A stretch of DNA of 64,000 nucleotides, taken from assembly GCA_024275565.1 (NCBI GenBank), contig JAJRYY010000009.1, forward strand, positions 6,756 through 70,755, in the 5' to 3' direction. Under the pieces are notes generated by a model. The model saw only the letters and a list, made by a program, of their open reading frames with translations, made no database searches and had not been told where the DNA came from. Below are positions 7,397-63,683 of the stretch, piece after piece (within the stretch, counting starts at the first letter, position 1; every line of letters begins with the position of its first letter). A program made the translations under genes and the position numbers. This stretch comes from Planctomycetota bacterium. Its GTDB lineage: Bacteria; Planctomycetota; Phycisphaerae; UBA1845.

Positions 7397-7703
7397 CGTC
7401 AATCCGTTTGAACCTCGCAAGCCCCTCAGAGATCCCTTCAGTGTGCTTCCAGTGAACCGCCAAAATATGAAGCATCGCTGCAATTCTCTGTTGCGATAGC
7501 ATCCGGTAGCTTGATATTGTCGATGAAGAAAGCGGAGGCAAGCGATGATGGAATTAAATTGTCTCTTTACAAAATAGTGTCCTAAGCGTTGGAAACTGAA
7601 TGGCGTGGTCGTTATCATGGTTTCGACAGACCCGGCCAAAATGTGATTCGGCTGGGTCCAAGTACATTGGTCTTCTTACTTATATTGATATGGGGAAAAG
7701 AAC

Positions 7704-12751: not shown

Positions 12752-12826
12752 TATCCCAGTCTTGGCTTCCTGTTGTTTAGCTTTCTATATTTGTAGTTTC
12801 CCAGTTTCAGCGTCCCAGTTTCAGAT

Positions 12827-14494: not shown

Positions 14495-14655
14495 CCCTTT
14501 TTTCCAAAGGAAATATCGTTATCGGTGCATGTTCAATCGAGAAGTATGCCAGGAAACGACTCCATACATACTGCATTATGGGTCGTATTACTTTTCCCCT
14601 TTCCATCTCGTACGTATCATTCGTAGCGATTGAAGAATAATTAGGCAAACTAATA

Positions 14656-20779: not shown

Positions 20780-20870
20780 AAGTCATTATGATCGGTGACT
20801 ATGTTCGTATAAGTCATGTTCGCGCAAGTCATGTTCGCATAAGTCATATTCGTACAAGTCATGTTCGAAA
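20780..20870. repeat. 15-bp tandem direct repeats (AAGTCATGTTCGNNN x4 near-perfect, plus 2 degenerate copies) in the leader of the FG-GAP gene
   Basis: Read directly: aagtcatgttcgcgc / aagtcatgttcgcat / aagtcatattcgtac / aagtcatgttcgaaa. Confidence 0.7.
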
Positions 20871-20924
20871 AGTCAGGCACGGAGAAACCATGTCCGGGGA
20901 AGTCAATCCCCGGCAGACGGGCTT

Positions 20925-40400: not shown

Positions 40401-40484
40401 CACAACAACCTCCTGGAAAGAACAATTCATCGACAGGGCGACCATGTCTTCCTAACAACAGGGCGCCCATATCTTCTTCAACAG

Positions 40485-40675
40485 TGTGGCCCATGTCTTC
40501 AGACATGGGGGAGCCGAAGACCACCCGCACAGCAACCCAAACTCTAGCCAAGCCTCAGGGTCCACTGTACGGACCACCATCACAACATAAAACGGGTCCC
40601 ACCGGCGACTCGTCCGCCAGCGTGCTTCATCACAGCATAAAACGGGTGCCACTGGCGGCTTGTCCGCCAGTGTCT
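40485..40675. repeat. REP-like element cluster in the rtcB-rtcA intergenic spacer
   Basis: Contains a CATGTCTTCAGACATG-GGGGAGCCGAAGA hairpin, a GGTCCACTGTACGGACC palindrome, and two copies of GGGT(G/C)CCAC(T/C)GGCG...CCGCCAG(T/C)G. Confidence 0.6.
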
Positions 40676-40730
40676 ATAACAAACACAACCATCGCATCCC
40701 ACACAGCACCCCAGACACACCACAACCACC

Positions 40731-42242: not shown

Positions 42243-42265
42243 GTTCCATGTGTACTGATAACCAT

Positions 42266-42282
42266 AAGCACCCTGCGTGCCA
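42266..42282 (-). promoter_or_regulatory. sigma-54 (-24/-12) promoter for rtcBA
   Basis: The minus strand reads TGGCACGcaggGTGCT, with a perfect -24 TGGCACG and correct spacing to a GC at -12. It lies 25-40 bp upstream of the rtcB start and next to the divergent rtcR. Confidence 0.5.
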
Positions 42283-42378
42283 GTTAGTCAAGTGTTGATT
42301 TATGGTGAAAAACGCCTGTGTGGTGCTGCGGATTTCCGAAAAGTTGATAAATCTGGATAGTTTTTTATAATCCTCGCT

Positions 42379-43986
42379 ATGTTGAACGTCGCAATCGGAA
42401 TGCTGGGCATGATGCGGGATCGCGGGGATGGACCGGATCGGTGGTCGCAATGGCGCCCTACTGTGTCTTTGTGTCAGCACGAGGATCTGTTGATCAGCCG
42501 TCTCGAACTGCTCGTCGAGACAGGATCGATGGATCTGGCGAATCGGGTGGCAGCCGACGTTCGCTCGGTATCCCCCGAGACCGAAGTTCGCCTCCATATG
42601 ATCGAATTTGGCGATCCATGGGACTTCGAGAATGTCTACAGCGTCCTGCACGGGTTTGCCCTGGATTACCAGTTTGACACCGATCAGGAGCGGTATCTGA
42701 TTCATGTGACCACGGGTACCCATGTCGCTCAAATCTGCACCTACCTGCTGACGGAATCCCGGCATCTTCCCGGGCGGTTGATTCAGACGGCGCCTCCGAA
42801 GCGGCGTAGTTCTGGGCAGGCTGGCCGGTATACGATTATTGATCTGGATTTGTCGAAATACGATCGAATCGCGCAGCGTTTTGAAAGCGAGCAGCGCGAA
42901 GGATCTGAATTCCTGAAGGCTGGGATTCAGACGCGTAATGTTGCTTTTAATCGCATGATTGACGAGATCGAATATGTGGCGATCCACTCGCGGGCGCCGA
43001 TCCTGCTGACGGGTCCGACGGGGGCGGGGAAGTCGAGTCTCGCCCGTCGTATCTTTGATCTGCGGAAGTTGCGGAACAACGTTGCGGGTCGTTTTGTGGA
43101 GGTCAACTGTGCGACCTTGCGTGGTGACGGAGCGATGTCTGCTCTTTTTGGTCATACGCGTGGATCGTTCACGGGGGCTGCTCAGGATCGGGCTGGATTG
43201 CTGAAGGAAGCCCACCTTGGGATTCTGTTTCTTGATGAGGTTGGCGAGCTGGGTCTGGATGAACAGGCGATGCTCTTGCGGGCTGTCGAAGAGCATCGTT
43301 TTCTTCCGCTTGGATCGGACAAGGAGGTCAGCAGTGATTTTCAGCTGATCTGCGGTACGAATCGCGACCTCGGGGCTGATGTCCGGTCGGGTCGATTTCG
43401 CAACGATCTGTTGTCCCGGATCAACCTCTGGGCATTTGAACTGCCGGGGTTGGCGCAGCGGCGTGAGGATATTGAACCGAACGTTCATTTTTCTCTTGAG
43501 CAGGTCACGGTTGCGACGGGCCATCGTTTTCGGTTCAACAAGGAGGCATTGGATATGTTTCTGCGGTTTGCGGAATGTCCGGATACCCCCTGGACCGGGA
43601 ATTTTCGAGACCTCGACGCTGCCATAGCCCGGATGGCGACCTTGGCGCCGTCCGGGAGGATTACGGAGGAGGCGGTGGATCGTGAGATTGATCGCCTCAA
43701 GCGGTCGTGGCGTGATTCTGGAACGTCTGCTTCGGTCGATGGTACGCATGTTCTGGAAGCCCTGCTGGGAGACAGGCTGGACGACCTTGACGAATTCGAC
43801 AGGGTTCAACTCGAGCGTGTGGTGCTGGTCTGTATGGAGTCGCGGTCCTTGTCGGTGGCTGGCCGTCGTTTGTTCGCTGCCTCAAGGCGTAAGCGGAAGG
43901 CGCCGAACGATGCGGATCGCCTTCGGAAGTATTTGTCGCGGTATCGACTGGACTGGTCCATGGTGAAAGACGCTCTTCCCGGGTGA
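42379..43986 (+). CDS. rtcR: sigma-54-dependent transcriptional activator RtcR (CARF-AAA+-HTH)
   Basis: Walker A LLTGPTGAGKSSLARRIF and the GAFTGA-like region are present. There is an N-terminal CARF-like domain and a C-terminal HTH. Confidence 0.85.
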   Translation: MLNVAIGMLGMMRDRGDGPDRWSQWRPTVSLCQHEDLLISRLELLVETGSMDLANRVAADVRSVSPETEVRLHMIEFGDPWDFENVYSVLHGFALDYQFDTDQERYLIHVTTGTHVAQICTYLLTESRHLPGRLIQTAPPKRRSSGQAGRYTIIDLDLSKYDRIAQRFESEQREGSEFLKAGIQTRNVAFNRMIDEIEYVAIHSRAPILLTGPTGAGKSSLARRIFDLRKLRNNVAGRFVEVNCATLRGDGAMSALFGHTRGSFTGAAQDRAGLLKEAHLGILFLDEVGELGLDEQAMLLRAVEEHRFLPLGSDKEVSSDFQLICGTNRDLGADVRSGRFRNDLLSRINLWAFELPGLAQRREDIEPNVHFSLEQVTVATGHRFRFNKEALDMFLRFAECPDTPWTGNFRDLDAAIARMATLAPSGRITEEAVDREIDRLKRSWRDSGTSASVDGTHVLEALLGDRLDDLDEFDRVQLERVVLVCMESRSLSVAGRRLFAASRRKRKAPNDADRLRKYLSRYRLDWSMVKDALPG

Positions 43987-45515: not shown

Positions 45516-45923
45516 GATATCAACTCGTTGAACCATAGATCGACTGCATAGCATCATCTTTTTATCGGACCTCGTTACAGCAAACTCACTTGATCGCACA
45601 CACATGCACCTGTCGCACGTTCATGCACCTGTCGCATGTCGCGGACAACGCGAGACGCACCAGGTTATTCTTGCAAAGCACATGACGATTTTCAATGCGA
45701 TAATGAGATAAAGGTGCGAACTCGCCAGTTTCGCACGCTGGAAGTGTCATCAATTGAAGAATTTGCACCCTTTGACGGTGCGAAATCCGCCTTTCATCGC
45801 CGGAAGCAATGTGCCGGCTGGGTCGTTTGCTTCAGTGGATGGTATCGCACGCTCTGGTGTAGCATCACGCTCTGGTGTGCATCTTGCTCTGGTGTGGGAT
45901 TTTGCTCTGGTGTGCATCTTGCT

Positions 45924-48900
45924 TTATGGAGCGGTATCGCCCCGGCGTACATCCTGCATCGCTCTTTGGATGAGAGGTCGATAATGTGTGCCGACACCTT
46001 CCTTGATGAGGTTTTCCGCTCCTTCCAGCAATGATTTTGCTTTGTCGAGGTCGCCTGAGCGTCGGTAGGCTTCTGCGAGGTGGTAAATGGCGGGGACGTA
46101 TTGCCGTTCCTTTTCGAGCAGCTTTGTGAGGAGTGCGATGGCTTCCGGATATTCTCCGAGCTTGACGTGCGTCCATGCGAGCGTGTCCTTGACGGTTGGA
46201 TGCCCATGGACCTGGGCTGCGCGCTGTGCGTAGGCGAGTGCGTCGCGCGGTCGATCCATTTTATCGCTCAGGAGGAATGCGAGGTTGTTGAGTCCTATAA
46301 TGTTGGTGTCGCTTATTTCCAGCAGGGCTTCATAGGTTTGCCTCGCGTTCTCGTAGTCTTCCTGCCGCTCATAGACGTTGCCAAGTCTGGCAAGGATGTA
46401 GATTTTCTCGGCATCGATGTTCGATGTTTCGATGATGCCCTGCATCAATGCTATTGCTTCTGAATCCTGCTCAAAATGTGCGCGGAGAATGGCGAGGATG
46501 TGGCGTTGTGCCCGCTCGAGCGTCGGGTCATCCAGTTTTTCGCTGAACAAGCCGACGGATTCTTCCTTGTCACACGAGCGAATGACGGCGACTCCGATTT
46601 CTTCCAGTGGACGTAATGTGCCGAACCCGGAATCTCGGAACGCCTTCAGGAACAATGGTACTGCCAATTCGAGCTGCCCGGTGTGTGCCAGCAGTTCGGC
46701 GTATCTTGCCTGAATGATCGTGTTAATTTTATCCTCAGGGACGACCTCCTTGTAGTATGTCAGCCCGCGATCGTATTGCTTCAGGGTGATGTATGCGCCA
46801 AGGAGGGATGCGACCTGGTCGGAATCGTATCCACTTAGTTTGGCTGCCTTCTCGTAGTCGACTATCGCGCTGGCTGCATCGCCGACCTTCATCTTCAACT
46901 CGCCGCGCTGGGTCACCCAGTAGGGATTGTCCTTGTAGCGATTTGCCATGGACGTCACTATGCGAATTGCGTCTGTATATCTGTCATGTACCTGATACAT
47001 GGCGACGAGATGTTTCGCCACCTTGATGGCTGACGGATCGTCGCGCAGAATTGATTCGAGCCCCTGGAACGCGAGTTCAAGATTGTGGACGAGTGCATAC
47101 CCATCCGCCAACAGCAGACGTGACTCGTAGTTCTGGAATTTCGGATCGACGCTTCTGATGCGTTCGAGCTCACGGATCGCGATAGGCCAACGCCCCTGTG
47201 AACCGTACAAGCGCGCTCGCTGCAAGGTTGCGTTGAGATCGTCTGGATGCCTGTCGAGATAGCGCGAGAGGTGTTCGATGGCGTCATCGACGCGGCCTGA
47301 GACGATTGAGACTGCGCTGTTGAGCAACATCACGTTCGGATCTTCCGGGTAACGCCGCTCAAAATCCTCGACGGCCTGCTGTGCGAGTTCCTTCTGGTGT
47401 GTTCGGAAAAACAGGTCGATTTTTCGACGCCGGAATTGAATGGCGATCTGTGTGGATTTCTGATCTGCGAGGTTGATTGCCCGATCGTACCATTCCAAAG
47501 CCGCTTCGAAGTCGCGTGCGTCAGTTTTAAAGGTGGCGAATGCAGCACACACTTCCAGGAATTCACCATGCGAGGCTGCGCGTTGCAGTGCGGCTTCTGC
47601 CCGTTTCATGTCGCCCTGCACATGCCAATGTTCTGCGAGAAGAAGCTCTGCTTTTGCTTTGGATTCCGGATCGGTCGCTTTTTTCGCATACCCCTGCAAG
47701 ACCTCGAGGGCGCGATCGGTCTCACCAATGGAGCGGAAGAATTTTGCGGCGATCAGGATCGTGTTGATGCGTGTGTCGGGTATTTTGAGGGCGTCATCGA
47801 AACATGCGACGGCATTTGGAATCTGCTTGGTGCGGATGTAGAGGTCCGCCAGCGCGATGAGATTTTCAACATTGGATGGCTGACTTGCCCGAATACGCTC
47901 TCGTCTCTGGATGCCCTCCACAGGCGTGGATTTTTCGCGAAGCGTCAGCAACTGAGACTGGACCCACGAATCGTTGGGGATCAGTTTGTCGCAATATTGA
48001 AGCCGCCGCACCAGCTCTTGCGGATTTCCCTGGACCGATGCGATGATCGCCAGCCCCTTTTGCGCCGCGCCGAGGTTTGGATTGGCTTCTACTGCCCTTG
48101 TAAAGTAGGTGCTTGCCTCGATGATGCGCGGCGGGGTGACAGACATTTGCGACTGCGCCATCAAGGTGAGCACATCGGCATTGGTGGGCTGCTTCTCCAA
48201 CGCCAGCTTGAACGATGAAATCGCCCCCTCATGGTCGCCCAGGACCTGGTACACACGGCCGCGATACGAGAGGCCGTCCGCCCCGTCGATGTTTTCCTTC
48301 ACGGCGGCTTGAACAATGGATTCCATCTCTTCTTCGTCGCGGGCTTCGGCGGCGGCGGCGAAACGTCGGTCCAGGATTTCGCGGAGGAATTTCTGCCGTA
48401 TCCCCTGATTTACGTTTGATTCGGGGGCGAGAAGTGCCGTTTGTGCAAGCTTGAGTGCAGCGACGTATGCGTCACGATTGCCATGCTGCAATTCAAGCTT
48501 GGCGATGCGGAAATTCCGTTCAAAATCGCTGGGAATCTCTTCGATCACCTTCATCTGGGCGTCATATCGCACCTCAGGAGCCATGTCTGGATCAGACACA
48601 GTCTCAAGCATCTTGAGGACCACGCTGTCTGGAGATTCTGCCATCCCACGGCGCACCAAAGTCAGCGCCTTGTCGTTCTGTTTCGCCTCATTGAGAATCT
48701 GCACCGCAAGCCGCAGGCAGGTGATGTTGGCTGGTTCATTTTGCAGCAGAGACTCGAGTATGGGCATTGCATCTGCCCCCTTGCCTGCGTCGTATAGCGC
48801 CTTGGCTTCCCGGTACAGATCGACCGGGGCTTCACGGAAGTAACTGTCGCGAATCGCGTTTGCAAGCTCCACCTGTCCGCGCCGCTGCAACGCCGTCATC

Positions 48901-50429
48901 TTCACGCGCAGTGCTTCTCGATTCTCCGGACTGCGTCGCAGGGCTTCGTCGACGGCTTGCAACGCCATCATGTCTTTGTTTGTCTCCAGCAAGATCTGTC
49001 CGTACAGCACCCAGCAGGAGGCGTCGGCTGTGTCATCGCCAATCGCATCGGCGATGGCTGACTCCGCGGCGCCTGGGCTTCCGCTTCGCAACAGGAGCTG
49101 TGCGAGCAAGCGACTGTTCTGCCAGTTTGGCTTTCCAAATTGCTTCCTCGCGTGCTCAAGAAGCGTGATCGCCTCGCGCTCGCGCCCCTGCCCGACTCGA
49201 ATCTTGCCCATCGTGTGCAGACCTGGACCCTGATCCGGAAATTCACCCGATGCCAGCACTGCAAAACCCTCAGCACGATCGAGAACCTCTGTGTACTCCT
49301 CCGAACCGGGATCGACTGTGGCTGCGTGTGCGAGACATTCTTCGGCGGCTTTTATCATGGTCAGATAAAGTGCGAACTTGCGCTGGAAGGTTTTGAATCC
49401 TTCGCGTCTGATGCCGAGATCGATGCGACTCTGACAGATTTTTACTGCTTCAAGATGATCGCCCTGGTATCCCGAAAGCTCGGCCAGGAGCATGTATGGC
49501 ATGAACCCCCTGTCGTAGATGGCGATGCTTTCTTCCAGCAGCTTCCTGGCGTTGTTGTAGTACTGCTCTGCTTCTTTCGCCAGGGCAGGGTCTCGTACAA
49601 CCTTGTACCAGCGAGCCACCCAGTACTGGGCAAACTGAGATTTGACATTGCCCGCGATTTCAGGATCGTCCCCGGAAAATTGCTCCGCTGCACGGAAATA
49701 TTTCAATGCGTCTTCGTGCTTGTTGTTGGCAGAAAGATACCGGGCAAACGTGTAACGCACACGCGCAGCCTCCTCGCCAGGCGTCTGGTGAACTTCGATC
49801 AGGCGTTTCAGTATGTTTTCTGCTTCCTCGGTGCGACCTTCAAGATGGATGATGCTCGCCATCGACAGCGCATACTTGACTACGTTTGGAGCAACCCGGA
49901 CCGCTCGGCGAATGTAGTCAATCCCCTCCCGACGATTTCCGCCGTCCTTCTCTGACAGACGCAACAATGCCGTCCCCAGACTGTAAAGCCCGAGCGGATT
50001 CTCCTGGTCGACTGCGAGCAATTCCTCGGATGCTTTTTTGACGCGTAACCAGCCTGCCGGCGTGCTGTGCATTTCCACCAGCTGGTTGGCTTTCTCGATG
50101 CCTTTTTCATGCGCCTCGACCAGGGAAGGGTCCTGATTGATCGCCTTCACCCAGAGCTCCCATGCCCCCTCGTCGTCGCCCTTCTCGTCGAGCATCTTTC
50201 CGGCTTCGACATAATACTTCGCGTCTCCGGAAACATTGGCTGCACGCATGTAAAAACTCTTGGCTTGCAACCAGTCGTTCTCGCTGGCACATTTCTTCGC
50301 CAGCTCAACATAGTGCGTTGGATCTGTCTGTCTCAGCGACAGAACCATGATCACGCCCACCGCTGTCATCACCACAAATCCTGCAAACGTCAGAGCACCG
50401 ACGAGTGGCTTGTTTATTTTCCTGGCCAT
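45924..50429 (-). CDS. membrane-anchored giant TPR-repeat protein (1501 aa)
   Basis: An N-terminal TM helix is followed by more than 30 TPR-like helical repeats. Confidence 0.75.
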   Translation of the reverse strand: MARKINKPLVGALTFAGFVVMTAVGVIMVLSLRQTDPTHYVELAKKCASENDWLQAKSFYMRAANVSGDAKYYVEAGKMLDEKGDDEGAWELWVKAINQDPSLVEAHEKGIEKANQLVEMHSTPAGWLRVKKASEELLAVDQENPLGLYSLGTALLRLSEKDGGNRREGIDYIRRAVRVAPNVVKYALSMASIIHLEGRTEEAENILKRLIEVHQTPGEEAARVRYTFARYLSANNKHEDALKYFRAAEQFSGDDPEIAGNVKSQFAQYWVARWYKVVRDPALAKEAEQYYNNARKLLEESIAIYDRGFMPYMLLAELSGYQGDHLEAVKICQSRIDLGIRREGFKTFQRKFALYLTMIKAAEECLAHAATVDPGSEEYTEVLDRAEGFAVLASGEFPDQGPGLHTMGKIRVGQGREREAITLLEHARKQFGKPNWQNSRLLAQLLLRSGSPGAAESAIADAIGDDTADASCWVLYGQILLETNKDMMALQAVDEALRRSPENREALRVKMTALQRRGQVELANAIRDSYFREAPVDLYREAKALYDAGKGADAMPILESLLQNEPANITCLRLAVQILNEAKQNDKALTLVRRGMAESPDSVVLKMLETVSDPDMAPEVRYDAQMKVIEEIPSDFERNFRIAKLELQHGNRDAYVAALKLAQTALLAPESNVNQGIRQKFLREILDRRFAAAAEARDEEEMESIVQAAVKENIDGADGLSYRGRVYQVLGDHEGAISSFKLALEKQPTNADVLTLMAQSQMSVTPPRIIEASTYFTRAVEANPNLGAAQKGLAIIASVQGNPQELVRRLQYCDKLIPNDSWVQSQLLTLREKSTPVEGIQRRERIRASQPSNVENLIALADLYIRTKQIPNAVACFDDALKIPDTRINTILIAAKFFRSIGETDRALEVLQGYAKKATDPESKAKAELLLAEHWHVQGDMKRAEAALQRAASHGEFLEVCAAFATFKTDARDFEAALEWYDRAINLADQKSTQIAIQFRRRKIDLFFRTHQKELAQQAVEDFERRYPEDPNVMLLNSAVSIVSGRVDDAIEHLSRYLDRHPDDLNATLQRARLYGSQGRWPIAIRELERIRSVDPKFQNYESRLLLADGYALVHNLELAFQGLESILRDDPSAIKVAKHLVAMYQVHDRYTDAIRIVTSMANRYKDNPYWVTQRGELKMKVGDAASAIVDYEKAAKLSGYDSDQVASLLGAYITLKQYDRGLTYYKEVVPEDKINTIIQARYAELLAHTGQLELAVPLFLKAFRDSGFGTLRPLEEIGVAVIRSCDKEESVGLFSEKLDDPTLERAQRHILAILRAHFEQDSEAIALMQGIIETSNIDAEKIYILARLGNVYERQEDYENARQTYEALLEISDTNIIGLNNLAFLLSDKMDRPRDALAYAQRAAQVHGHPTVKDTLAWTHVKLGEYPEAIALLTKLLEKERQYVPAIYHLAEAYRRSGDLDKAKSLLEGAENLIKEGVGTHYRPLIQRAMQDVRRGDTAP

Positions 50430-50555
50430 AATGCGAGATCACTCCGTACGGGTCATGCTTGCAGATCAAAAGTGCACACCAGTTAGACGCTTCCTACCAA
50501 AAAACGCACCAAGCTTCCTGCTCAGTCTTACTGCTCAGTCTTTCTGTCCATCTTC

Positions 50556-51350
50556 CTACAAAGCTTCCTGATCGTCTTCCAGTTCGGCTTCCTGTTCAGC
50601 TTCCAGTTCAGCTTCCTTGATCGCCTTCCAGTCAGGCCAATGTTCTTCAATCAGCAAGGGCAGGATGCGCGACAATATCTCGCGTGTCTCCTCGATCGCC
50701 TCTTCACGCGTTGGGAATGTCACCGTCCCGACGGTCACCTCAACCTTGCTATAGTATGCCTGACTGTCGTATGGGTTCGTAATCGCGCGAATGATCTCGC
50801 CTCGTCTGGCTGCAAATTTTCCATTCGCGTGGAACGTATAGATCACGGTCATGCTTGCGCTGTTGAAAATGCCCGTTTTCACGAACGTAAGAACGCGAAC
50901 CGTCACTTCCTTATCACCCTTCAGCGTGGGGATGGTCAGCGTGACGTAATCCTGCGAATCTGCCTCATAACCAGAAGCTGCCAGGCAAATATCGGGCGTG
51001 TGCAGATGCCGCTCGGTATTTCCGGGGTAGTAGGTCACCGACACCCGCGCGTAACGGCGCGGATCGTCGGGAGAATCGAGTTTCGTATTTTCCAGTACCC
51101 AGTTGATGTACTGATCCGTGCCAAGGGTCTCGACCACCGAAGATTCGAGCTGGTGAGATTTCACAAGATGGTATTTTCCAAGACGCCGCTCATCGAGTTG
51201 AGAGAGGGGTTTCCGAAGCTGAGCAGCCACCTTTTCCGTCGATACCCGGACGAGGCGTGCAAGGGGTTGCAATCCCAGGGCTGTAACACCCAGCAACATC
51301 GTGCAGATGAGAAACGGTTTGTTAAAAAAAGGAGGTGCCTGCTGACTCAT
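50556..51350 (-). CDS. hypothetical membrane-anchored protein with acidic C-terminal tail
   Basis: 264 aa with an N-terminal TM helix and a C-terminal tail EAELEAEQEAELEDDQEAL. It lies directly upstream of the TPR giant on the same strand. Confidence 0.45.
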   Translation of the reverse strand: MSQQAPPFFNKPFLICTMLLGVTALGLQPLARLVRVSTEKVAAQLRKPLSQLDERRLGKYHLVKSHQLESSVVETLGTDQYINWVLENTKLDSPDDPRRYARVSVTYYPGNTERHLHTPDICLAASGYEADSQDYVTLTIPTLKGDKEVTVRVLTFVKTGIFNSASMTVIYTFHANGKFAARRGEIIRAITNPYDSQAYYSKVEVTVGTVTFPTREEAIEETREILSRILPLLIEEHWPDWKAIKEAELEAEQEAELEDDQEAL

Positions 51351-51644: not shown

Positions 51645-51730
51645 GATTCCCCTGTGCTCCCCGCACTCCCTGTGCTCCCCGCACTCCCTGTACCCCCTGC
51701 ACTCGCTGTACTCCCTACCCTCCCTGTACG
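51645..51730. repeat. 18-bp tandem repeats (CCGCACTCCCTGTGCTCC x2 plus 2-3 degenerate units) upstream of the acetyltransferase gene
   Basis: Read directly from the sequence. Confidence 0.6.
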
Positions 51731-52513: not shown

Positions 52514-52527
52514 CCCCGCGATCGAAT

Positions 52528-52610
52528 CTGATCACGACCTGCAACGAGAAACTGATCACGGACTGCAACGAGTAACTGGTCACGGCCTGCAACGATAAAC
52601 TGGTCATCAC
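52528..52610. repeat. 24-bp tandem repeat x3.5 (CTGATCACGGACTGCAACGAGTAA) filling the convergent gap between the acetyltransferase and S8 protease genes
   Basis: Read directly from the sequence. Confidence 0.65.
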
Positions 52611-55712: not shown

Positions 55713-56696
55713 ATGACCATGACAACACGTCCATCAGGAGACCCTGCGGTGATCGATAAAATACTGCGCGACGTCAAGCTGCCATCGCTTCCAGATGCCG
55801 CCATCCGTATGCTGGAACTTTGCCGCGACCCCGGCGTCAGTGCCCAGGAAATCGTACGCGTTATCGAGCTAGACCCATCGCTGTCCGCACGCCTGCTGAA
55901 GGTCGCAAACAGCTCCTTCTTCGGACAAAGTGGCAAAATCGAGACCCTGACGCGTGCAGCCATCCTCCTTGGCAACGACTATCTGAAAGCGGTGGGACTC
56001 GGGTTCTTTCTCACGCAGACCTGGAAAGATGTGCAGCCTGACGGGTTCGATTTCCGGGAATTCTGGCGGGACAGCATCCTCCGGGCATGCCTGGCACGTC
56101 AGATCGCATCTAAAATCGATTATCACCCCAGGGAACAGGTCTTCCTGGCTGGCATGCTCGCGGACATTGGTTCCCTGGTGATGGGGGTGACCTTCGAAGG
56201 TGACTATGCGACGACCATGGGGCGTTTCGTCGGGGCGGATAACGACCGCAAGGATTACGAGCAGAAGCACTTCGGCGTCAACCATGTCGATCTGGGAAAA
56301 GCGATCGCCCAGAAATGGTCATTCCCCGAATCGATCGTGTGTGCAATCGCACGCCACCAGGACACGCCCCCCATGCGTGCAGACCGCGATCGCACCATTG
56401 TGCTGTGGCAGATTACGCACTTCTGCCTGACGGTTCCATTTGCTCAGGATCGGCAGACCGCCCAGGTGTGTTCCCAGTTGCGACAGTTGGCCATCATCTC
56501 ACTCGGACTCTCTTTCGAATCTCTGAGCGAACTTTTCTCCGAAACCGTTGAGCAATTCAATGTACTTGCGTCCGTTTTCTCCAACCTGCTCCCAGCAGAT
56601 GTGAACGTGTCGGACATGATGAATACTGCGACCGAGATGCTGCGCGAGGTGGATCAGCAGGCGACACAGCAGCTTGCACAAATCGAGTCCGAATAA
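55713..56696 (+). CDS. HDOD-domain signalling protein
   Basis: The region LPSLPDAAIRMLELCRDPGVSAQEIVRVIELDPSLSARLLKVANSSFFG matches the HDOD family. Confidence 0.8.
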   Translation: MTMTTRPSGDPAVIDKILRDVKLPSLPDAAIRMLELCRDPGVSAQEIVRVIELDPSLSARLLKVANSSFFGQSGKIETLTRAAILLGNDYLKAVGLGFFLTQTWKDVQPDGFDFREFWRDSILRACLARQIASKIDYHPREQVFLAGMLADIGSLVMGVTFEGDYATTMGRFVGADNDRKDYEQKHFGVNHVDLGKAIAQKWSFPESIVCAIARHQDTPPMRADRDRTIVLWQITHFCLTVPFAQDRQTAQVCSQLRQLAIISLGLSFESLSELFSETVEQFNVLASVFSNLLPADVNVSDMMNTATEMLREVDQQATQQLAQIESE

Positions 56697-56996
56697 TTAA
56701 GAGCAGAATCAGACGATGCGAACAGCATGTCAACGGCGAGGTGCAGCCCGACGTATTTTCATCGTAACCTTACCGCGACCCTTCCGCGCTGCTCGGACGT
56801 CCGAGAACCCTTTGAGGCTACAGACGTCCGAGAACACGCTGAGGCTACATTTGCAGCAAAAACACCGTTATCGGGTGCAGATTCCACTTGACTTCACCTC
56901 CTTTCGGTCACAACAATCCGATGCCTCCGGGAGTGGGCAATGGGGTGGCGATGGGTCACGATCTTCTCGTGCAGGAGATGAGTCGGCTCGTGAGGG

Positions 56997-58112
56997 ATGT
57001 CTGGGCGCGTATCGTGGGGGAGCAAAAAGGTGAGGGAACCGGAACTAACAGCAGTTGTGCTGGCGGGCGTACATGACTGGGGTGCGTGTGCGTTGAATCA
57101 GGCGGTGATTCGTCCGCTTGCACCCATCGCGAATATGCCGGTCGTTGGCTATGTGTTGCGTGCACTGGTGACAGCCCGGGTGCGTCGAGCGATACTGTGT
57201 ACCAACGGTCATGGTGATGCTTTCCGTGAGGCGATCGGGGATGGGAGCGCATTTGGCCTCGAACTCAGCATACGCGACGATGACATGCCAAGAGGACCAG
57301 CGGGTTGTTTGAAAGACGCTTATGCTGACCTTGAGGGCGACTGCCTCGTCATGGAATCAAGCCTCATACCACACTTCGACATACAGCAGCTTGTCGCAGA
57401 CCATCGCTCTACGGGGGCAGCTGTCACGATCGCCTCTCAAAAAACTCAAAAAGCGGGCATGGACCATTATTCACCTGTCGGTGTCTACGTCTTTTCGCCT
57501 GAAGTGGTCGAAGAAATCTCATCCACAGGATTCGTTGATATCAAGGAAAACGTGCTTCCCAGGCTTCACCATGAAGGCAAGCGCGTGGATGTTCATGTCG
57601 TCGATGGGCCAACGCCACATCTTCAAGGTATTGCAAGTTATTTTTCGTTGAATGAATGGGCAGTGAAAATGGCAGCCCGGGGTGCTTTCGATCTGGATGA
57701 ACACTATCTGGACGGGGAAACACTGGTGCATATTCACGCCGAAGTCGATCCAACCGCTCGGATGATGGGTCCGGTTGTCATCGGACCAGGAGCCCGCATA
57801 CGGGCTGGAGCAATCATCGTCGGTCCGACCTCGGTCGGTCAGGATAGCATCGTCGGGCAGAACTGCGTCATATCACGGTCTGCATTATGGGACAACACGA
57901 CCATCGGAAATGACGCCCAGGTTGACAGATGCGTCGTCGGGAAAACTGCACGCGTGGAGGAAAGTGTGCAGATGTTCAACAGTGTCTGCGTTCCATTACA
58001 GCCAAAAAGAAGCAGGTTTCTACCGAAAACACGCATCTCACATCCGAAAAACGATCCGTCACCGACACAGGGTGAAACCGAGGATGCAGTACGCAGGCAA
58101 CTGATGACGTAG
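56997..58112 (+). CDS. sugar-phosphate nucleotidyltransferase-like protein with C-terminal left-handed beta-helix
   Basis: An N-terminal NTP-transferase fold (AVVLAGVHDWGACALNQAVIRPLAPIANMPVVGYVL) is followed by hexapeptide repeats. Confidence 0.7.
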   Translation: MSGRVSWGSKKVREPELTAVVLAGVHDWGACALNQAVIRPLAPIANMPVVGYVLRALVTARVRRAILCTNGHGDAFREAIGDGSAFGLELSIRDDDMPRGPAGCLKDAYADLEGDCLVMESSLIPHFDIQQLVADHRSTGAAVTIASQKTQKAGMDHYSPVGVYVFSPEVVEEISSTGFVDIKENVLPRLHHEGKRVDVHVVDGPTPHLQGIASYFSLNEWAVKMAARGAFDLDEHYLDGETLVHIHAEVDPTARMMGPVVIGPGARIRAGAIIVGPTSVGQDSIVGQNCVISRSALWDNTTIGNDAQVDRCVVGKTARVEESVQMFNSVCVPLQPKRSRFLPKTRISHPKNDPSPTQGETEDAVRRQLMT

Positions 58113-58322: not shown

Positions 58323-59042
58323 ATGTCAAACGTACCGAAACAACATAAAACAGGTCTTCTGGCTGCCATCCTCTGCGTCGCAACTGTGACCGGACTGGCC
58401 AGCCCGACGATGGGCGAAACACTCACATATTCGCAATCCTTCAAACCTCGGAAGCCAGGCTGGTCTTCGACGTTTAGAGCACCACAATTCGACCCCACAT
58501 TGGGAACGCTCGAATCGGTGGTGATTTCACTGACGGGTCGTACGGAGGGCGTAGCTGCCTTTGAAAATCTGGGAGAGAGTCCGGCGGATGTCCAGATTCG
58601 CTACACCGCCGAGTTCCAGCTCGTCCAGGATTCATCACCCATCCTTGTCGCATCTCCGACCCTGGAACTGTCCGATGTGGTGTCAGCTTTCGACGGTGTT
58701 CTAAACTACACAGGTGATTCCGGACGTACTTATAAGGACATCGCCGCTGATGCAACATCCGATACAACCTTCATCCTCGGACGCGACGATCTTACCAGTT
58801 ATATAGGAACCGGACTGCTGTCCATACGCCTGCTGACAGGAGGGTTTATCGGCCAACCCCAGTCCAGCGGTGCTCTGAACGCATCAGACGACCTTGAATT
58901 GTACATTAACCAGAGGTTGTCGGCGACGGTGGATCTGACCTATGAGTACACAGCCGTACCAGAACCTGGTCTGGCGACACTGGTAGGTCTTGGCGGAGGC
59001 GTGTTGCTACGCAGACGTCGCCGGGCGATGAAAGCCTCATGA
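58323..59042 (+). CDS. PEP-CTERM-anchored secreted protein
   Basis: A signal peptide is present. The C-terminus reads TAVPEPGLATLVGLGGGVLLRRRRRA, which is PEP followed by a TM helix and an Arg cluster. Confidence 0.75.
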   Translation: MSNVPKQHKTGLLAAILCVATVTGLASPTMGETLTYSQSFKPRKPGWSSTFRAPQFDPTLGTLESVVISLTGRTEGVAAFENLGESPADVQIRYTAEFQLVQDSSPILVASPTLELSDVVSAFDGVLNYTGDSGRTYKDIAADATSDTTFILGRDDLTSYIGTGLLSIRLLTGGFIGQPQSSGALNASDDLELYINQRLSATVDLTYEYTAVPEPGLATLVGLGGGVLLRRRRRAMKAS

Positions 59043-59105: not shown

Positions 59106-60860
59106 ATGGCGACTCAGGGGATCATTTGCGACTTCCGGATACGGCGATCGGAGACTGGTAGTCCCCACTCGCTTCTGACCATGCCACTGGGCATCGATCA
59201 CATGATCGACACTGTATTATCAGCACTGACCAACTGCGGATGCGACCATGTCCTGATCGTACCCGCTTTCAAACCCTGTCACGAATACCTCTCAAGGATC
59301 GCAGAACTGGCGGACCACACCCCGGTGACCGTCGTAGACCCTGACGAACGCACCGGGATCCTCACAGACGGCGAATCGTCCGACAGCCTGGTCTTTCTCG
59401 ACCCACGTTATTGGCCTGCAGGTGGATTCGAGCTCAACCCAATCCTGAAAATGCATCGCGAATATTTCGGACCCGTGTTCGGAGTACATCTCAGCCCGGA
59501 GGCTGGTGACCAGTCAGAGCGGGTCCTCATGGACGCCTCAGGGAACGTCCGAAAAATCCAGCGCGCATTCGACAAAACTCTCTGGTCGAACGCAGATGCA
59601 ACCACCGTACCATTCTGCGTCATCCCGCACGGACTGATTATGCATGGCCCGACCTTCCCACTGAGCAAAATGCGACAACAACTTGCACAGCATGGGGCAC
59701 CGATCCGCGACATCCCCATGAATTCACGAACACGCGACCTCAGCAGACAATCCGATTTAATCGCATTCTGCAGCGACCGGGCAGCCAACCCGACCGAGCG
59801 GGACCTCGCAATCGCACCTCCAGGACCGGACCAGCCCCACGCCCTCGTCGCCAGAGAAGCAACCGTCGCAGACACTGCCCGACTCATCGGCCATGTGATG
59901 GTGCTTCCAGATGCCCTTGTGGGCGAAAATGCGATCATTATTGGACCGACTGTCATCGGACAGGGTGCTACAATTGGTTCTGATGTCACCGTGTCGCAAT
60001 CGGTCGTACTGGATCGAACCGTTGTACCTTGTGGCGTCCAGATTCACCATCAGATATTCGCAGGCGACATCGATACAGACAACGCCCATGATACGATCGA
60101 AGACGCACCACGACTTGCCCAACCGGTAGAGGGTGAGTTTGAAGTTGTCGGGTCGGATCCGGGACACGTTGCGAGTGGGCAGAAACGACTGCAAAGATCT
60201 CTCGTCGTCAAGCGGATCATGGATATCACCGTCTCACTGACTGGGTTGATCGTTCTAACACCACTGATGCTGCTGACAGTCATCCTGATAAAACTGACTT
60301 CCACCGGACCGGTATTTTTCATTCACCGTCGTGAAGGCCGCGACGGTCGGGAGTTCGGCTGCGCCAAATTTCGTACCATGCGTACAGACGCACACGCCAT
60401 GCAGCGCGAACTGGCACAGCAAAACGAAGCAGATGGTCCTCAATTCGTCATTAAGAAAGACCCACGGGTCACGCCACTCGGCAGAATTCTGAGAAAGAGC
60501 AACATCGACGAATTACCCCAGCTATTCAACGTACTCATGGGCGATATGAGCCTCGTCGGACCCCGACCGTCGCCCTTCCGAGAGAACCAGGTCTGCCTGC
60601 CATGGCGTAAAGCAAGACTGTCTGTACCACCGGGCATCACCGGACTCTGGCAAGTCTGCCGCCACAGTCGCGAGGAAGGCGATTTCCACCAGTGGATCTA
60701 TTTCGATACAGCTTACGTCCGACACATGTCTGCCTGGCTGGATGTGAAAATCATCTTCTACACCTTCGTGACCCTGGGAGGGAGAAGACCGGTCGCAATG
60801 GAACGCATCGTCGGTCAGGATGCAGAAATCAGACAGGCATCGATGGCAGCGGGCACCTGA
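59106..60860 (+). CDS. fusion protein: divergent nucleotidyltransferase-like/hexapeptide N-terminal module plus C-terminal polyprenyl-phosphate sugar phosphotransferase (WbaP/EpsB-type priming transferase)
   Basis: The C-terminal 200 aa carry the bacterial sugar-transferase signature ([10 protein letters not shown]...PGITGLWQV) behind one TM helix. The N-terminal 350 aa are paralogous to the ORF at 56997-58112. Confidence 0.75.
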
Positions 60861-60950
60861 GGCCTGAAGGTAAGAATAAGCACGCTGACGAAGGGTGCAA
60901 AACCAGGTCAACGCAAAACCAGGTCAACACGCTCAGGGCAGAATACATTC

Positions 60951-61307
60951 TCAATCGTCAAAGAGAAACTTCGCGCCAACCTTAAATGAACCAACGCTCT
61001 GCGTGCTGTGTTGTATGCGGATCGGTATCCACAGATCCTCTTCATCATCAATACAGCGGATCTCCACGATGCTTCGCGGCGGAATCTCCAGCTTGCAGAC
61101 AAACCCCACACCACTGCTGGACACATTGGTACCTCGGGCGACGACGACCCGCCCGTCGCATTTCAGCTCCAACGCCGCCGACCAGGGATAGAACCGTGGC
61201 TCGTCCCTTTTGCCCAGATATGGGGTGGTCTCAGCATCCAGAAAATCGCCCAGCCACTCAATGACCTTCTCTCTCGTCTGACTCTCTGTTGCTAGCATCG
61301 CCCGCAT
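60951..61307 (-). CDS. stand-alone PilZ-domain (c-di-GMP-binding) protein
   Basis: An R..PR motif and N-V-S-S-S-G-V-G motif are spaced about 30 aa apart. Confidence 0.6.
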   Translation of the reverse strand: MRAMLATESQTREKVIEWLGDFLDAETTPYLGKRDEPRFYPWSAALELKCDGRVVVARGTNVSSSGVGFVCKLEIPPRSIVEIRCIDDEEDLWIPIRIQHSTQSVGSFKVGAKFLFDD

Positions 61308-61325
61308 ATCTCCATCAAAATCTGA

Positions 61326-62513
61326 TTATGGCTTTCTACCGAACAACTTCCCGAGCAACCCGCTACCCGCCACCCCAATGCCGGCTTTTAACATGGCGTA
61401 TTCGGGAGCAATTTTCAATGCCATCTCCTGAATGGCCGTTCGCGCCTTGCTCGTGGGAGCATCAGCACCAATCGGATGACCAAGATCGAGTGATGCAGAA
61501 ACATACTGGTAATCGTTGGGTATCACTGCGAACACAGGCCGACGGAAGTGCTGCTCGACATCCTTGATTGAGATGCGATCAAATTCGGCATTCCAGCGAT
61601 TCAACACAATATGCACACGGTCGTCATCAGCGCCCATGCTGATAAGCGAATGATAGATACGCGAAGCATTCCGAATGAACGGGACACCAAGCTGAGTTAC
61701 GATGAGGATATGATCGGCCCGACCAATGCAGACCGCACTCAGGAAATTAAAGGAGCGCGGGAGATCCACGACGATATTGTTATAATGTCGCCCGAGCAAT
61801 CCAAACATCTGCTCAACGCCGTCCAGCGACACGTCACGGGCATCTTCAACATTATCAGGACGCGCCACAATAGAAACACCACACGGCAGACGTTCCAGAA
61901 CAGCTGACACAGAAGTTTCGTCCAGTTCAATACCTTCATGACAGATATCTGCAATCGAGTATCTGGGATTCACATCGAAGGAGCAGGCAACATCCCCAAA
62001 CTCAAGGTTCATATCAACCAGCGCAACGTCTTCGCCCGACAGACACTGCAACTCCATCGCGAGGTTGCAGGCCAGCATCGTCGCTCCAGCACCACCCGAA
62101 GAACCGACAACGCAGATCGTCCGCGAACCGACCAATGGCTTGGCCACTATCGGCTTCATCCGATAAATGGCATTGTTGAGATCCTCAGCCTCAACAGGCC
62201 AACACACATACTGACTGCACCCGGAACGCATGGCTCCGATAATGAACAGAGATTCGGTCCTGCTGCTGACCCCCAGCACGCCACATTCCGGAATCAGGCG
62301 AGCACACTTTTCTACCACCTTCATCCCGCCGGGGCAGTCCAGATTCACCGCGATGACGTCGACTGTCCCTTCAGCAAGACATAGCTGAAGCGCGTCCCAC
62401 CCATCGAAGACCCGCTCAACGGTAACCTGCTCACAAGCATCGAACGGTTCACGGAACGCAGACTCTCTCGATACAGTGTCGTCATATAAGGCTATGCGCA
62501 ATTTGCTATTCAT
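61326..62513 (-). CDS. CpaE/TadZ-like protein: N-terminal pseudo-receiver plus MinD/ParA-type ATPase
   Basis: A deviant Walker A (VVGSSGGAGATMLACNLA) is present. The N-terminal domain is REC-like (LRIALYDD...VDVIAVNLD). The gene forms an operon with the downstream PilZ gene. Confidence 0.7.
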   Translation of the reverse strand: MNSKLRIALYDDTVSRESAFREPFDACEQVTVERVFDGWDALQLCLAEGTVDVIAVNLDCPGGMKVVEKCARLIPECGVLGVSSRTESLFIIGAMRSGCSQYVCWPVEAEDLNNAIYRMKPIVAKPLVGSRTICVVGSSGGAGATMLACNLAMELQCLSGEDVALVDMNLEFGDVACSFDVNPRYSIADICHEGIELDETSVSAVLERLPCGVSIVARPDNVEDARDVSLDGVEQMFGLLGRHYNNIVVDLPRSFNFLSAVCIGRADHILIVTQLGVPFIRNASRIYHSLISMGADDDRVHIVLNRWNAEFDRISIKDVEQHFRRPVFAVIPNDYQYVSASLDLGHPIGADAPTSKARTAIQEMALKIAPEYAMLKAGIGVAGSGLLGKLFGRKP

Positions 62514-62876
62514 ATAAGTCCCCGCCCTTGCGGTACACACAGAAAATGCCCGCTCGACCCGTAAGTCCTCACATCTCAACCCATAAGCATCGTCCATTCA
62601 GAGTCCGTTGTTTGGACGGAACTCGACTTGGGGTACTTATTCTGAATGGCGCATACCCTATCGGACCTGCTGGCAGGGTTATCGGTCACGACGGACATAA
62701 TGTGAACCATCAGACGACGTCAACCGATGGACTGACTAGCATCTTGGACACAATCGTTGAATGTCAAATCGACGATCAGCCACGTCGTTTTGCCCAACGC
62801 CGGATTCCTCGCTATACTGACACGACAAAGCGTCGCAAAGGGCGACGCATTCCTACCCAGGGAGCGTGTCACAATC

Positions 62877-63683
62877 ATGAACGTCTTACAAGGCAGCATG
62901 AACGTCTTACAAGGCAGGCAGGCCATGGTCTGCGGAAGCACGCAGGGTATCGGGCGAGCGTGCGCGATGGAAATCGCAAAACTCGGAGCATCCGTCACCC
63001 TCGTCGCCAGAAACGAAGCGACACTCCAGCAGGTCTGCGACGAACTACCCTCCGAGGAAGGACAGAATCACGCCATCCTATGTGCAGATTTCTCCGACAT
63101 CTCAAGCCTGACCGACAGTCTGCACGCCATGGTCACAGAACGCGGAACCTACCATGTACTCGTCAACAACACTGGCGGACCGACCAGCGGCCCCATCATT
63201 GAGGCTGACCTCGAAGCGTTCGCACAGGGGTTTTCTAACCACGTCCTCTGCAACCACACCCTGCTGAAAGCACTCCTGCCGGGCATGAAGGAAGAAGCCT
63301 TCGGACGCATCGTCAACATCATCTCAACCTCAGTCCTCATGCCGATCAAAGGGCTCGGCGTCTCCAACACGATCAGGGCTGCCGTGGCGAACTGGGCGAA
63401 GACAGTCGCAAGCGAGGTCGCATCCTTCGGAATCACCGTCAACAACGTACTCCCCGGATTCACCGATACCGCACGATTGACGCACCTCTTTGAAGCCAAG
63501 GCGAATCGTACCGGCCAGACCGTCGAACAGATCCGTGAGGCAGCCATCGCGATGATACCCGCCGGTCGATTGGCGCACCCTTCCGAAATAGCAGCCGTCG
63601 TAGGCTTCCTCACCTCCCCCGCCGCAAGCTACATCAGCGGCGTAAACATCCCGGTAGACGGAGCAAGAATGGCCGCCCAGTAA
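62877..63683 (+). CDS. short-chain dehydrogenase/reductase (SDR)
   Basis: The TGxxxGIG cofactor motif (CGSTQGIGRA) is present, along with the catalytic Tyr-Lys region. The start carries a 21-bp in-frame tandem duplication. Confidence 0.8.
   Translation: MNVLQGSMNVLQGRQAMVCGSTQGIGRACAMEIAKLGASVTLVARNEATLQQVCDELPSEEGQNHAILCADFSDISSLTDSLHAMVTERGTYHVLVNNTGGPTSGPIIEADLEAFAQGFSNHVLCNHTLLKALLPGMKEEAFGRIVNIISTSVLMPIKGLGVSNTIRAAVANWAKTVASEVASFGITVNNVLPGFTDTARLTHLFEAKANRTGQTVEQIREAAIAMIPAGRLAHPSEIAAVVGFLTSPAASYISGVNIPVDGARMAAQ

Follow-up and report, generated by a model that had tools for sequence, protein, structure and literature searches.

A TadZ-like scaffold outside the Tad pilus system and its stand-alone PilZ neighbour: a candidate cyclic di-GMP output module in Phycisphaerae

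Scaffolds of the MinD/ParA type that place envelope machines, such as TadZ, BcsQ and FlhG/FleN, are well known, and so are the PilZ receptors of cyclic di-GMP (c-di-GMP), whose canonical binding motifs are RxxxR and [D/N]xSxxG. FleN works with the c-di-GMP receptor FleQ, and small PilZ proteins serve as adaptors on larger partners, as in the pairing of Xanthomonas and Pseudomonas PilZ proteins with the pilus ATPase PilB and of YcgR/FlgZ with the flagellar motor. TadZ has been described as adjoining tadA and as carrying the motif K/RGGxGxS/T (bioRxiv 10.64898/2026.07.08.737194). In BcsQ, the P-loop is deviant and the water-activating Asp is replaced; the protein forms a stable ATP sandwich dimer with weak hydrolysis, and makes most of its contacts with the synthase in the assembled Bcs complex through the PilZ domain of BcsA (PMC7840130). 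In this study, we analyse a pair of adjacent genes from an uncultured Planctomycetota bacterium of the class Phycisphaerae (contig JAJRYY010000009.1), one encoding a protein of TadZ architecture, which we call the scaffold, and the other a small PilZ protein. The window is the whole stretch of 64,000 nucleotides (nt) in which the pair lies, and all positions are counted from its first letter.

Our strongest result is negative for the simple reading of this locus: the larger gene is not a pilus gene. On balance, and with only slightly more confidence than doubt, we regard the pair as a c-di-GMP output module in which a TadZ-architecture scaffold standing outside the Tad pilus system is coupled to a dedicated stand-alone PilZ receptor, and the case for a new c-di-GMP effector pair is suggestive, not proven. 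The pair works most like BcsQ together with the PilZ domain of BcsA, looks most like TadZ, and shares its tail and fold with MinD and FlhG; by defining features, it is a member of none of these groups. Literature searches on CpaE/TadZ with PilZ, on Phycisphaerae with CpaE and on Planctomycetes with PilZ returned no description of such a pair. The two genes and their parts, with lengths in amino acids (aa) and model confidence as the predicted local distance difference test (pLDDT), are the following.

61326 to 62513, minus strand: gene of the TadZ-architecture protein, 395 aa, receiver-like domain plus MinD/ParA fold (open reading frame with Pfam and NCBIfam matches)
62139 to 62513, minus strand: atypical receiver domain, residues 1-125 (family alignment, model and profile matches)
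61404 to 62123, minus strand: MinD/ParA (SIMIBI) fold domain, residues 131-370 (profile and Foldseek)
62079 to 62105, minus strand: degenerate P-loop, G137-S-S-G-G-A-G-A-T145 (read from the sequence)
61329 to 61373, minus strand: C-terminal tail, residues 381-395, ending GLLGKLFGRKP and resembling the membrane-targeting sequence of MinD (motif and low pLDDT)
61308 to 61325, minus strand: intergenic spacer of 18 nt with a GGAG ribosome-binding site (sequence)
60951 to 61307, minus strand: gene of the stand-alone PilZ protein, 118 aa, with an N-terminal helix, a flexible RxxxR loop and a six-strand beta-barrel (Pfam PilZ, alignments and model)
61194 to 61208, minus strand: RxxxR motif, R34-D-E-P-R38, with R34 and R38 invariant in all 12-13 aligned PilZ partners
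61110 to 61127, minus strand: [D/N]xSxxG motif, N61-V-S-S-S-G66, in canonical form

A sequence-only reading that preceded our analysis had placed a two-gene minus-strand pair at 60951-62513, and both genes lie where it placed them. The open reading frame of the larger gene at its full extent covers 61326-62597 (423 aa), the same length as the public gene call P0001, which opens at 62597, 28 codons before the ATG at 62513 (MNSKLRIALYDD). The true product is most likely the protein of 395 aa, because all homologues in the family alignment begin at the ATG at 62513, in agreement with the end coordinate given by the earlier reading; this ATG is preceded by a purine-rich GGGGA, and the start of P0001, which adds the segment 62514-62597, is most likely too early. 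The stop codon TAA of the larger gene occupies 61326-61328, and the ATG of the PilZ gene stands at 61307 with the GGAG four bases upstream of it. The gap had been put at 19 bp; the adjacency holds, and the length is corrected to 18 nt. Because no terminator was detected in this spacer, by a promoter and terminator scan that performed no better than on shuffled sequence, the two genes look co-transcribed as a tight two-gene operon.

The same reading had described the larger product as CpaE/TadZ-like, with a receiver domain joined to a ParA-type ATPase, and this architecture is borne out. In the AlphaFold model (pLDDT 84), the N-domain has a five-strand beta/alpha fold, and the family profile matches CheY, the CpaE N-domain 4DN6 and the TadZ N-domain 4LDA at E values of about 1e-8. 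Judged by profile and model, the receiver-like domain is real despite its Pfam Response_reg score of 19.6 bits, which is under the 30.2 cut-off. For the MinD/ParA domain, the profile search of the Protein Data Bank (PDB) gives an E value of 2e-33 for 3EA0 and of 4e-22 for archaeal MinD, and the target-normalised TM-scores from Foldseek are 0.87 to 3EA0 and 0.82 to MinD. The top PDB matches of the scaffold are 3EA0, TadZ 3FKQ, MinD, FlhG, FleN, Soj and BcsQ, and of all solved structures only 3FKQ, from Eubacterium rectale, can be aligned across the two domains together. The best Pfam match is CBP_BcsQ (34.3 bits, cut-off 21.3), and CbiA (27.7 bits, cut-off 25.4) and AAA_31 are matched as well. 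Among NCBIfam models, those of MinD, of the actinobacterial CpaE homologue Ssd and of BcsQ match best, and all of them fall far short of their curated cut-offs (67.9 against 201.75 for minD_arch, 58.5 against 212.9 for minD_bact, and 30.4 against 157.85 for cellulose_yhjQ, the BcsQ model). An identity as a BY-kinase, that is, Wzc or the PEP-CTERM tyrosine autokinase, was also considered and rejected: TIGR03018 scores 19.6 against 230.65, the Walker lysine is absent, and the tail has no tyrosine cluster.

At 45-60% identity, at least 330 homologues of the scaffold were found; every one comes from a metagenome-assembled genome of Phycisphaerae/Planctomycetota, and some of them carry the automatic name "pilus assembly protein CpaE". 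Family members are present on the complete chromosomes CP070718.1, CP070691.1, CP054190.1 and OY776568.1. Residue counts below refer to 80 tabulated and aligned family sequences, and gene neighbourhoods to 80 relatives' loci (L-numbers) from one scan of species-representative genomes, with flanks of up to 10 kb per side.

Both domains of the scaffold have lost residues on which the activity of their better-known relatives depends. The phospho-acceptor position, D57 in CheY, is N57 in the window protein, at the end of strand beta3 (residues 53-57 in the model), and the acceptor within the VAVNLD stretch is N, H or S in 80 of 80 relatives. The rest of the pocket is degenerate as well: in the CheY alignment, W105 stands at K109 and S83 at T87, and across the family the K109 position holds Trp or another non-basic residue. 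From these residues, the receiver domain is predicted to be non-phosphorylatable. In the MinD/ParA domain of the window protein, K11 of MinD corresponds to S138, K16 to A144 and D40 to N169. Lys or Arg occurs at neither P-loop lysine position in any of the 80 family sequences, and small residues, mostly Ser, Ala or Thr, are found instead; the K/R signature position is S, A, T, G or H in all 80, with the GGxGxT portion retained (SSGGAGAT in the window). In the profile alignment to archaeal MinD, the near-invariant N169 aligns with the water-activating Asp, the second Asp of the MinD "VDAD" ("VDlNle" vs "VDADIT"). By alignment, all three MinD hydrolysis residues (K11, K16 and D40) are replaced in the scaffold. 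Invariant residues on its surface are R253, N282, R285, N305-R306 and P332-N-D-Y335. An active ParA-type positioning cycle is unlikely because these three catalytic residues are lost, and a static ATP-bound scaffold is more likely than a cycling ATPase.

The C-terminal tail is conserved across the family and is MinD-like. The motif G-[LF]-[LF]-x-[KR]-[LIF]-[WLF]-x-[RK], also written GL[LF]xK[LI][FW]xR, ends nearly all 80 relatives, and in the model the tail has low pLDDT and is predicted to be unstructured when alone. The GLLGKLFGRK of the window protein resembles KGFLKRLFGG, the tail of E. coli MinD, and on this resemblance the scaffold probably binds the membrane by a MinD-like tail. The hydrophobic moment failed to separate real tails from shuffled ones and is not used as evidence here.

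Set against the described systems, the scaffold is like TadZ in that both are without the canonical Walker A lysine (GxGx[ST] for GK[ST]), and unlike it in having Ser at the signature K/R, Asn at the catalytic Asp and a MinD-like tail, and in having PilZ and HD-GYP genes as its recurrent neighbours instead of pilus genes or tadA/cpaF. Like BcsQ, it has no cis lysine in its deviant P-loop, and its water-activating Asp is replaced; however, BcsQ contains no receiver domain and works with BcsR, BcsE and BcsA, whereas here there are no bcs genes, the Pfam search found no BcsA or BcsB domains in the window, and the PilZ protein is free-standing. The analogy to BcsQ that the sequence-only reading had drawn is nevertheless apt, as BcsQ directly contacts the BcsA PilZ domain (PMC7840130). 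MinD and FlhG/FleN have the same fold (target-normalised TM-scores of about 0.75-0.82), and the basic-amphipathic tail of the scaffold resembles their membrane-targeting sequence; unlike the scaffold, MinD and FlhG keep K11, K16 and D40, cycle by ATP hydrolysis and have no receiver domain. The closest solved relative by profile and fold is 3EA0, a "ParA family ATPase" of Chlorobium tepidum from structural genomics with an undescribed function, which is also without the Walker A lysine (KGGDGGS) but keeps the signature lysine, and whose solved chain (245 residues) is the ATPase domain only. Finally, the known PilZ adaptor pairs are similar in that a small PilZ protein, not fused to other domains, serves a larger partner that binds nucleotides or acts as a motor, although the partner here has a MinD/ParA fold and is not a hexameric secretion ATPase or a stator.

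The small product had been taken for a stand-alone PilZ protein from its R..PR and NVSSSG motifs, and it does have PilZ similarity, scoring 28.4 bits against Pfam PilZ (PF07238; cut-off 22.5); PF07238 also appears in the precomputed Pfam annotation of P0121 and P0122. The two motifs are separated by 22 residues, which is the normal spacing, and with both of them intact the protein is a putative c-di-GMP receptor. Its AlphaFold model is of low confidence (pLDDT 57), with a helix at 8-20 and the barrel at 46-116. The PilZ partners of the family form one subfamily, characterised by the N-terminal helix, the invariant RxxxR, an invariant Trp (W93) and the signature HxTQTxGxxKxG, and the second motif is canonical also in L001, L087, L089 and L090. 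About 105 PilZ representative clusters were found among 1.84 billion proteins, and the fusions among these representatives are to HD-GYP, histidine-kinase or TPR domains only. Word-indexed protein searches with the PilZ protein, both as a single sequence and as a 13-sequence profile, matched only itself and one relative, and a metagenome scan with a narrower PilZ alignment gave two loci. On the metagenome contig L086, a PilZ protein of 42% identity (3187-3531) is flanked by a large FAD/4Fe-4S membrane protein on one side and, on the other, by a convergent gene whose product has a PEP-CTERM-like C-terminal tail.

The gene order around the scaffold family, with relatives' genes called by GC content at each codon position, is highly variable. 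An apparent conserved neighbour was rejected as a spurious antisense open reading frame inside the ATPase gene, which longest-frame calling produces in high-GC genomes. Among the nearest-upstream genes (n = 74), PilZ is the commonest Pfam family, with seven loci, and HD_5, the HD-GYP-type domain, has five; among the nearest-downstream genes (n = 69), PilZ ranks third, with 3 loci at Pfam thresholds. A hidden Markov model of the PilZ subfamily finds partners in 15 loci, with every match at most 1.1 kb from the ATPase. As a control, we drew 142 genes at random from these loci, at distances of 3-10 kb from the ATPase, and listed their 25 commonest families, down to those with 2 members; PilZ and HD_5 are both outside this list and hence have at most 2 matches each. 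Five arrangements of the PilZ partner occur. In two of them, a small PilZ protein is encoded downstream, either on the strand of the scaffold, as in the window's clade, or in convergent orientation (L075, L081). In two others, the partner is a tandem-PilZ protein of about 320 aa encoded upstream, on the scaffold's strand in L019, L046 and L054 and divergently in L058 and L064. In the fifth, an HD-GYP-PilZ fusion is encoded upstream and divergently, beside deep paralogues of the scaffold (L078, L079). The adjacency is found in at least four separate clades of the neighbour-joining tree, the deepest branches included, with differing gene orders. About 12 genomes have HD-GYP genes upstream in divergent orientation, and only the truncated copy of L080 does not show the GYP motif. 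Because one partner family recurs in many layouts, the recurrent adjacency of PilZ and HD-GYP genes argues for a functional c-di-GMP link, as judged from gene neighbourhoods, and not for inherited chance. The c-di-GMP-responsive ParA-type positioning or activation module of the earlier reading is therefore retained in one half: this recurrence upholds the link to c-di-GMP, and the loss of the three catalytic residues speaks against the active positioning cycle.

The fusions deserve a description of their own. The HD-GYP proteins that carry a C-terminal PilZ domain of the same subfamily lie at 8086-9543 in L078 and at 8088-9506 in L079, and the domain order in the database protein P0210 is PilZ-PilZ-transmembrane-HD-GYP. 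The joining of a c-di-GMP receptor to a phosphodiesterase that acts on the same molecule suggests that c-di-GMP is under local feedback. Among the Pfam matches of the window's open reading frames and of the relatives' neighbours, there is no minC or minE, and no flagellar genes lie nearby.

Several observations weigh against a module of scaffold and PilZ receptor. Approximately three quarters of the family loci have no adjacent c-di-GMP gene, and the near relatives L003, L004, L007 and probably L002 have the ATPase without an adjacent PilZ gene. The second PilZ motif is degenerate in L006 (SLSTEG), L016 (NLNQHG), L008 (NLTSHG), L075 and L081, so c-di-GMP binding may not be universal among the partners. 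No fusion of the ATPase to PilZ exists among the 105 PilZ representatives, and on contig L086 a PilZ protein of this subfamily occurs although the ATPase is absent. Moreover, the loss of the lysines could end nucleotide binding altogether, beyond hydrolysis, and the membrane-binding tail is proposed from the resemblance of a motif. The exopolysaccharide (EPS) genes beside the pair are convergent with it, not co-transcribed, and linked to it in one clade only.

If the pair does act as a c-di-GMP output module, we picture its operation as follows. The scaffold would bind ATP as a structural cofactor, by analogy with BcsQ, and, like BcsQ and TadZ, would dimerise stably as a sandwich at the inner membrane, with the tail as its membrane anchor. 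The c-di-GMP-loaded PilZ protein would then dock on the scaffold in the manner of the BcsA PilZ domain on BcsQ, and this docking would switch the choice of client to be recruited or activated by the scaffold. For the receiver-like domain, a role in protein-protein contacts or localisation is likely by analogy with a proposal made for TadZ. In the window's clade, the client might be the set of HDOD, NTP-transferase/LbH and PEP-CTERM proteins together with the phosphoglycosyl transferase and its cytoplasmic left-handed beta-helix (LbH) domain. The client is the weakest step of this proposal: the glycan-initiation genes are obvious candidates in the window's clade, and the family as a whole is untied to them. 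A much wider reading, which we put forward as doubtful, is that the scaffolds and their PilZ subfamily constitute, together with the HD-GYP enzymes, an unrecognised Phycisphaerae-wide c-di-GMP effector system, in which a hydrolysis-dead, membrane-bound TadZ/MinD-like dimer would be a spatial landmark switched by c-di-GMP through a free-standing PilZ adaptor; as part of this reading, the landmark could mark sites of envelope glycan or PEP-CTERM export, or could control polarity or division.

The genes on the far side of the PilZ gene are the following; the HDOD protein and polysaccharide genes reported by the sequence-only reading next to the pair are confirmed among them.

55713 to 56696, plus strand: HDOD protein (Pfam HDOD, E 6e-52)
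56997 to 58112, plus strand: NTP-transferase/LbH protein (Pfam NTP_transferase and LbH)
58323 to 59042, plus strand: PEP-CTERM protein with a choice-of-anchor E domain (NCBIfam NF033208, 92.9 bits)
59106 to 60860, plus strand: phosphoglycosyl transferase (Bac_transf) with an N-terminal nucleotidyltransferase-like/LbH domain, convergent with the PilZ gene (Pfam Bac_transf, E 1e-62; NCBIfam EPS_sugtrans, 262 bits)

The ATPase and the PilZ gene are kept together, with a spacer of 16-60 nt, in nine genomes (the window, L001, L006, L008, L016, L085, L087, L089 and L090), among which the identity of the PilZ proteins is only 42-63%. Eight of the nine, all except L089, have the convergent LbH-phosphoglycosyl transferase, and most also carry PEP-CTERM proteins and the NTP-transferase/LbH protein; the HDOD and NTP-transferase/LbH genes are conserved in L006, L008, L016 and L087, and one or two PEP-CTERM copies stand at the same position in L008, L087 and L090. 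One or two HD-GYP genes lie divergently upstream in five of the nine. The window, like L006 and L016, appears from the gene order to have lost them, because the dehydrogenase found upstream of the pair sits just beyond the HD-GYP pair in L089 and L090.

These neighbours raise the alternative that the pair is a dedicated regulator of the adjacent polysaccharide/PEP-CTERM glycan pathway, activating or positioning the LbH-phosphoglycosyl transferase as BcsQ does with cellulose synthase. The block of HDOD, NTP-transferase/LbH, PEP-CTERM and transferase genes is convergent with the pair in eight genomes despite protein identities of 45-64%, PrsT-like TPR and DUF3485 genes of the PEP-CTERM/exosortase type lie nearby, and the Pfam BcsQ family is the top Pfam match of the ATPase. 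However, the eight genomes fall together in a single clade of the tree, so the block may be inherited synteny, and the orientation is convergent. Outside this clade, the neighbours of the ATPase are entirely different and include no glycan genes, which means that the core function of the family is not EPS-specific. We therefore consider a dedicated glycan regulator improbable. For the proposed module in the window's clade, the adjacent envelope-glycan pathway is the likeliest client, which we hold possible while leaning against it; a polysaccharide client is plausible, not established. The role "for polysaccharide synthesis or secretion" that the sequence-only reading assigned to the pair was a supposition and not a finding, because the tie is conserved in one clade only and in convergent orientation; most members of the scaffold family are without EPS neighbours.

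A second alternative is that the larger gene is an ordinary tadZ/cpaE split from a Tad locus elsewhere in the genome, with the PilZ protein adding c-di-GMP control of pilus placement. The TadZ architecture, 3FKQ as the sole full-length structural match, the matches of the N-domain to the CpaE and TadZ N-domains and the automatic "CpaE" names of relatives are all in its favour. The features by which TadZ is recognised divide, however: the atypical N-terminal receiver domain and the C-terminal MinD/ParA fold are present, whereas the K/R of K/RGGxGxS/T is missing, in 80 of 80 sequences, and neither in the window nor in the relatives' loci does the gene stand next to tadA/cpaF. To our knowledge, a MinD-like C-terminal tail is not a feature of TadZ. 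As the earlier reading had noted, the window has no other tad genes: a Pfam sweep of the larger open reading frames over the 64 kb found no T2SSE, T2SSF, secretin, Flp, TadE or A24 prepilin peptidase, and the rest of the swept frames are housekeeping genes, rtcR-rtcB-rtcA, glyoxylate-shunt genes, the giant PrsT-like TPR gene and the DUF3485 gene. Nor does a tad cluster adjoin the pair. A divergent short-chain dehydrogenase gene (62757-63683) lies upstream, where relatives show either this dehydrogenase or HD-GYP genes, and, enclosed as it is by this divergent gene and the convergent transferase gene, the operon cannot be the edge of a tad operon. Pfam finds no tad family among the 143 immediate neighbours of the relatives (74 upstream and 69 downstream), none of the approximately 80 relatives' loci is a tad locus, and T2SSE-like genes, present within 10 kb in 5 of about 78 loci, are in no case in the cpaE-cpaF order. 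The T2SSE gene beside L012 was rejected as a tad remnant, as it belongs to the PilT/PilU family rather than to CpaF and its surroundings contain no further pilus genes. Deep paralogues in the same metagenome-assembled genomes (L076 with L078, L057 with L080) are also outside tad loci, and the paralogues at 35% identity (L078-L081) were rejected as the true tad-locus CpaE, since they adjoin HD-GYP(-PilZ), MoxR/VWA and similar genes. We consider an orphan tadZ quite unlikely. The gene should not be named cpaE because two defining features of TadZ fail: the name fits the architecture, and does not fit the signature K/R or the location beside tadA. The scaffold is TadZ-like in architecture and not an ordinary cpaE, and, should its coupling to c-di-GMP be real, the automatic label "pilus assembly protein CpaE" on several hundred database proteins is probably misleading.

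The last alternative, a c-di-GMP-independent housekeeping role such as MinD-like division or polarity with PilZ adjacent by inherited chance in some lineages, can draw on the roughly 75% of loci without a c-di-GMP neighbour, on other neighbours such as tRNA synthetases, TruD and GAPDH, and on the MinD-like tail and fold, but we consider it very unlikely in view of the PilZ or HD-GYP adjacency in at least four clades with varied orders, orientations and fusions, the position of both families outside the 25 commonest control families, and the membership of the PilZ partners in one subfamily with its own signature (W93, HxTQTxGxxKxG).

What appears from the literature searches to be new in the favoured reading of scaffold and PilZ receptor as an output module is a TadZ-architecture family without pilus context or catalytic residues that is tied to stand-alone PilZ and HD-GYP proteins. 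If the coupling is true, the pair offers a concrete, testable c-di-GMP output in the poorly studied and mostly uncultured Phycisphaerae, and it would add to BcsQ-BcsA a second example in which a PilZ domain reads a SIMIBI pseudo-ATPase.

Several further observations concern the neighbouring genes. At L012, a PilT/PilU-family ATPase of 437 aa (7341-8654) lies directly upstream of the scaffold on the same strand, with a stand-alone receiver protein downstream. The window's transferase (59106-60860) has a cytoplasmic N-terminal domain of about 360 aa that contains a left-handed beta-helix, and a fusion of this kind is unusual among Bac_transf enzymes; the domain is paralogous to the NTP-transferase/LbH protein at 56997-58112, with 37% identity over the LbH region, and the fusion is conserved in related loci. 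A PEP-CTERM/exosortase-type context is found at 45924-51350, where a TPR protein of 1501 aa resembles PrsT (TIGR02917, 263 bits, under the 312 cut-off) and a DUF3485 protein weakly matches part of the exosortase XrtD; a dockerin-containing S8 protease and a PglD-like acetyltransferase are encoded near this region, and no exosortase gene was recognised in the window. Unrelated to the pair are an rtcR/rtcB/rtcA RNA-repair locus at 39384-43986 and, at 11399-15642, the isocitrate lyase and malate synthase of the glyoxylate shunt beside a LysR regulator.

In the dehydrogenase gene upstream of the scaffold, a perfect 21-bp tandem duplication (62876-62917) repeats the first codons (MNVLQGS/MNVLQGR) and yields two in-frame candidate starts. 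Between the convergent stop codons of the transferase and PilZ genes, there is a perfect 16-bp repeat in two copies. Short tandem repeats of this kind occur in most intergenic regions of the window, with a period of 12-45 bp, 2-8 copies and a different unit each time (for example, 2099-2238, 20801-20875, 28157-28874, 45851-45923, 50562-50632, 51650-51729, 52524-52606, 56796-56849, 60897-60928 and 62876-62917), and they look like a genome-wide habit rather than a feature specific to this locus.

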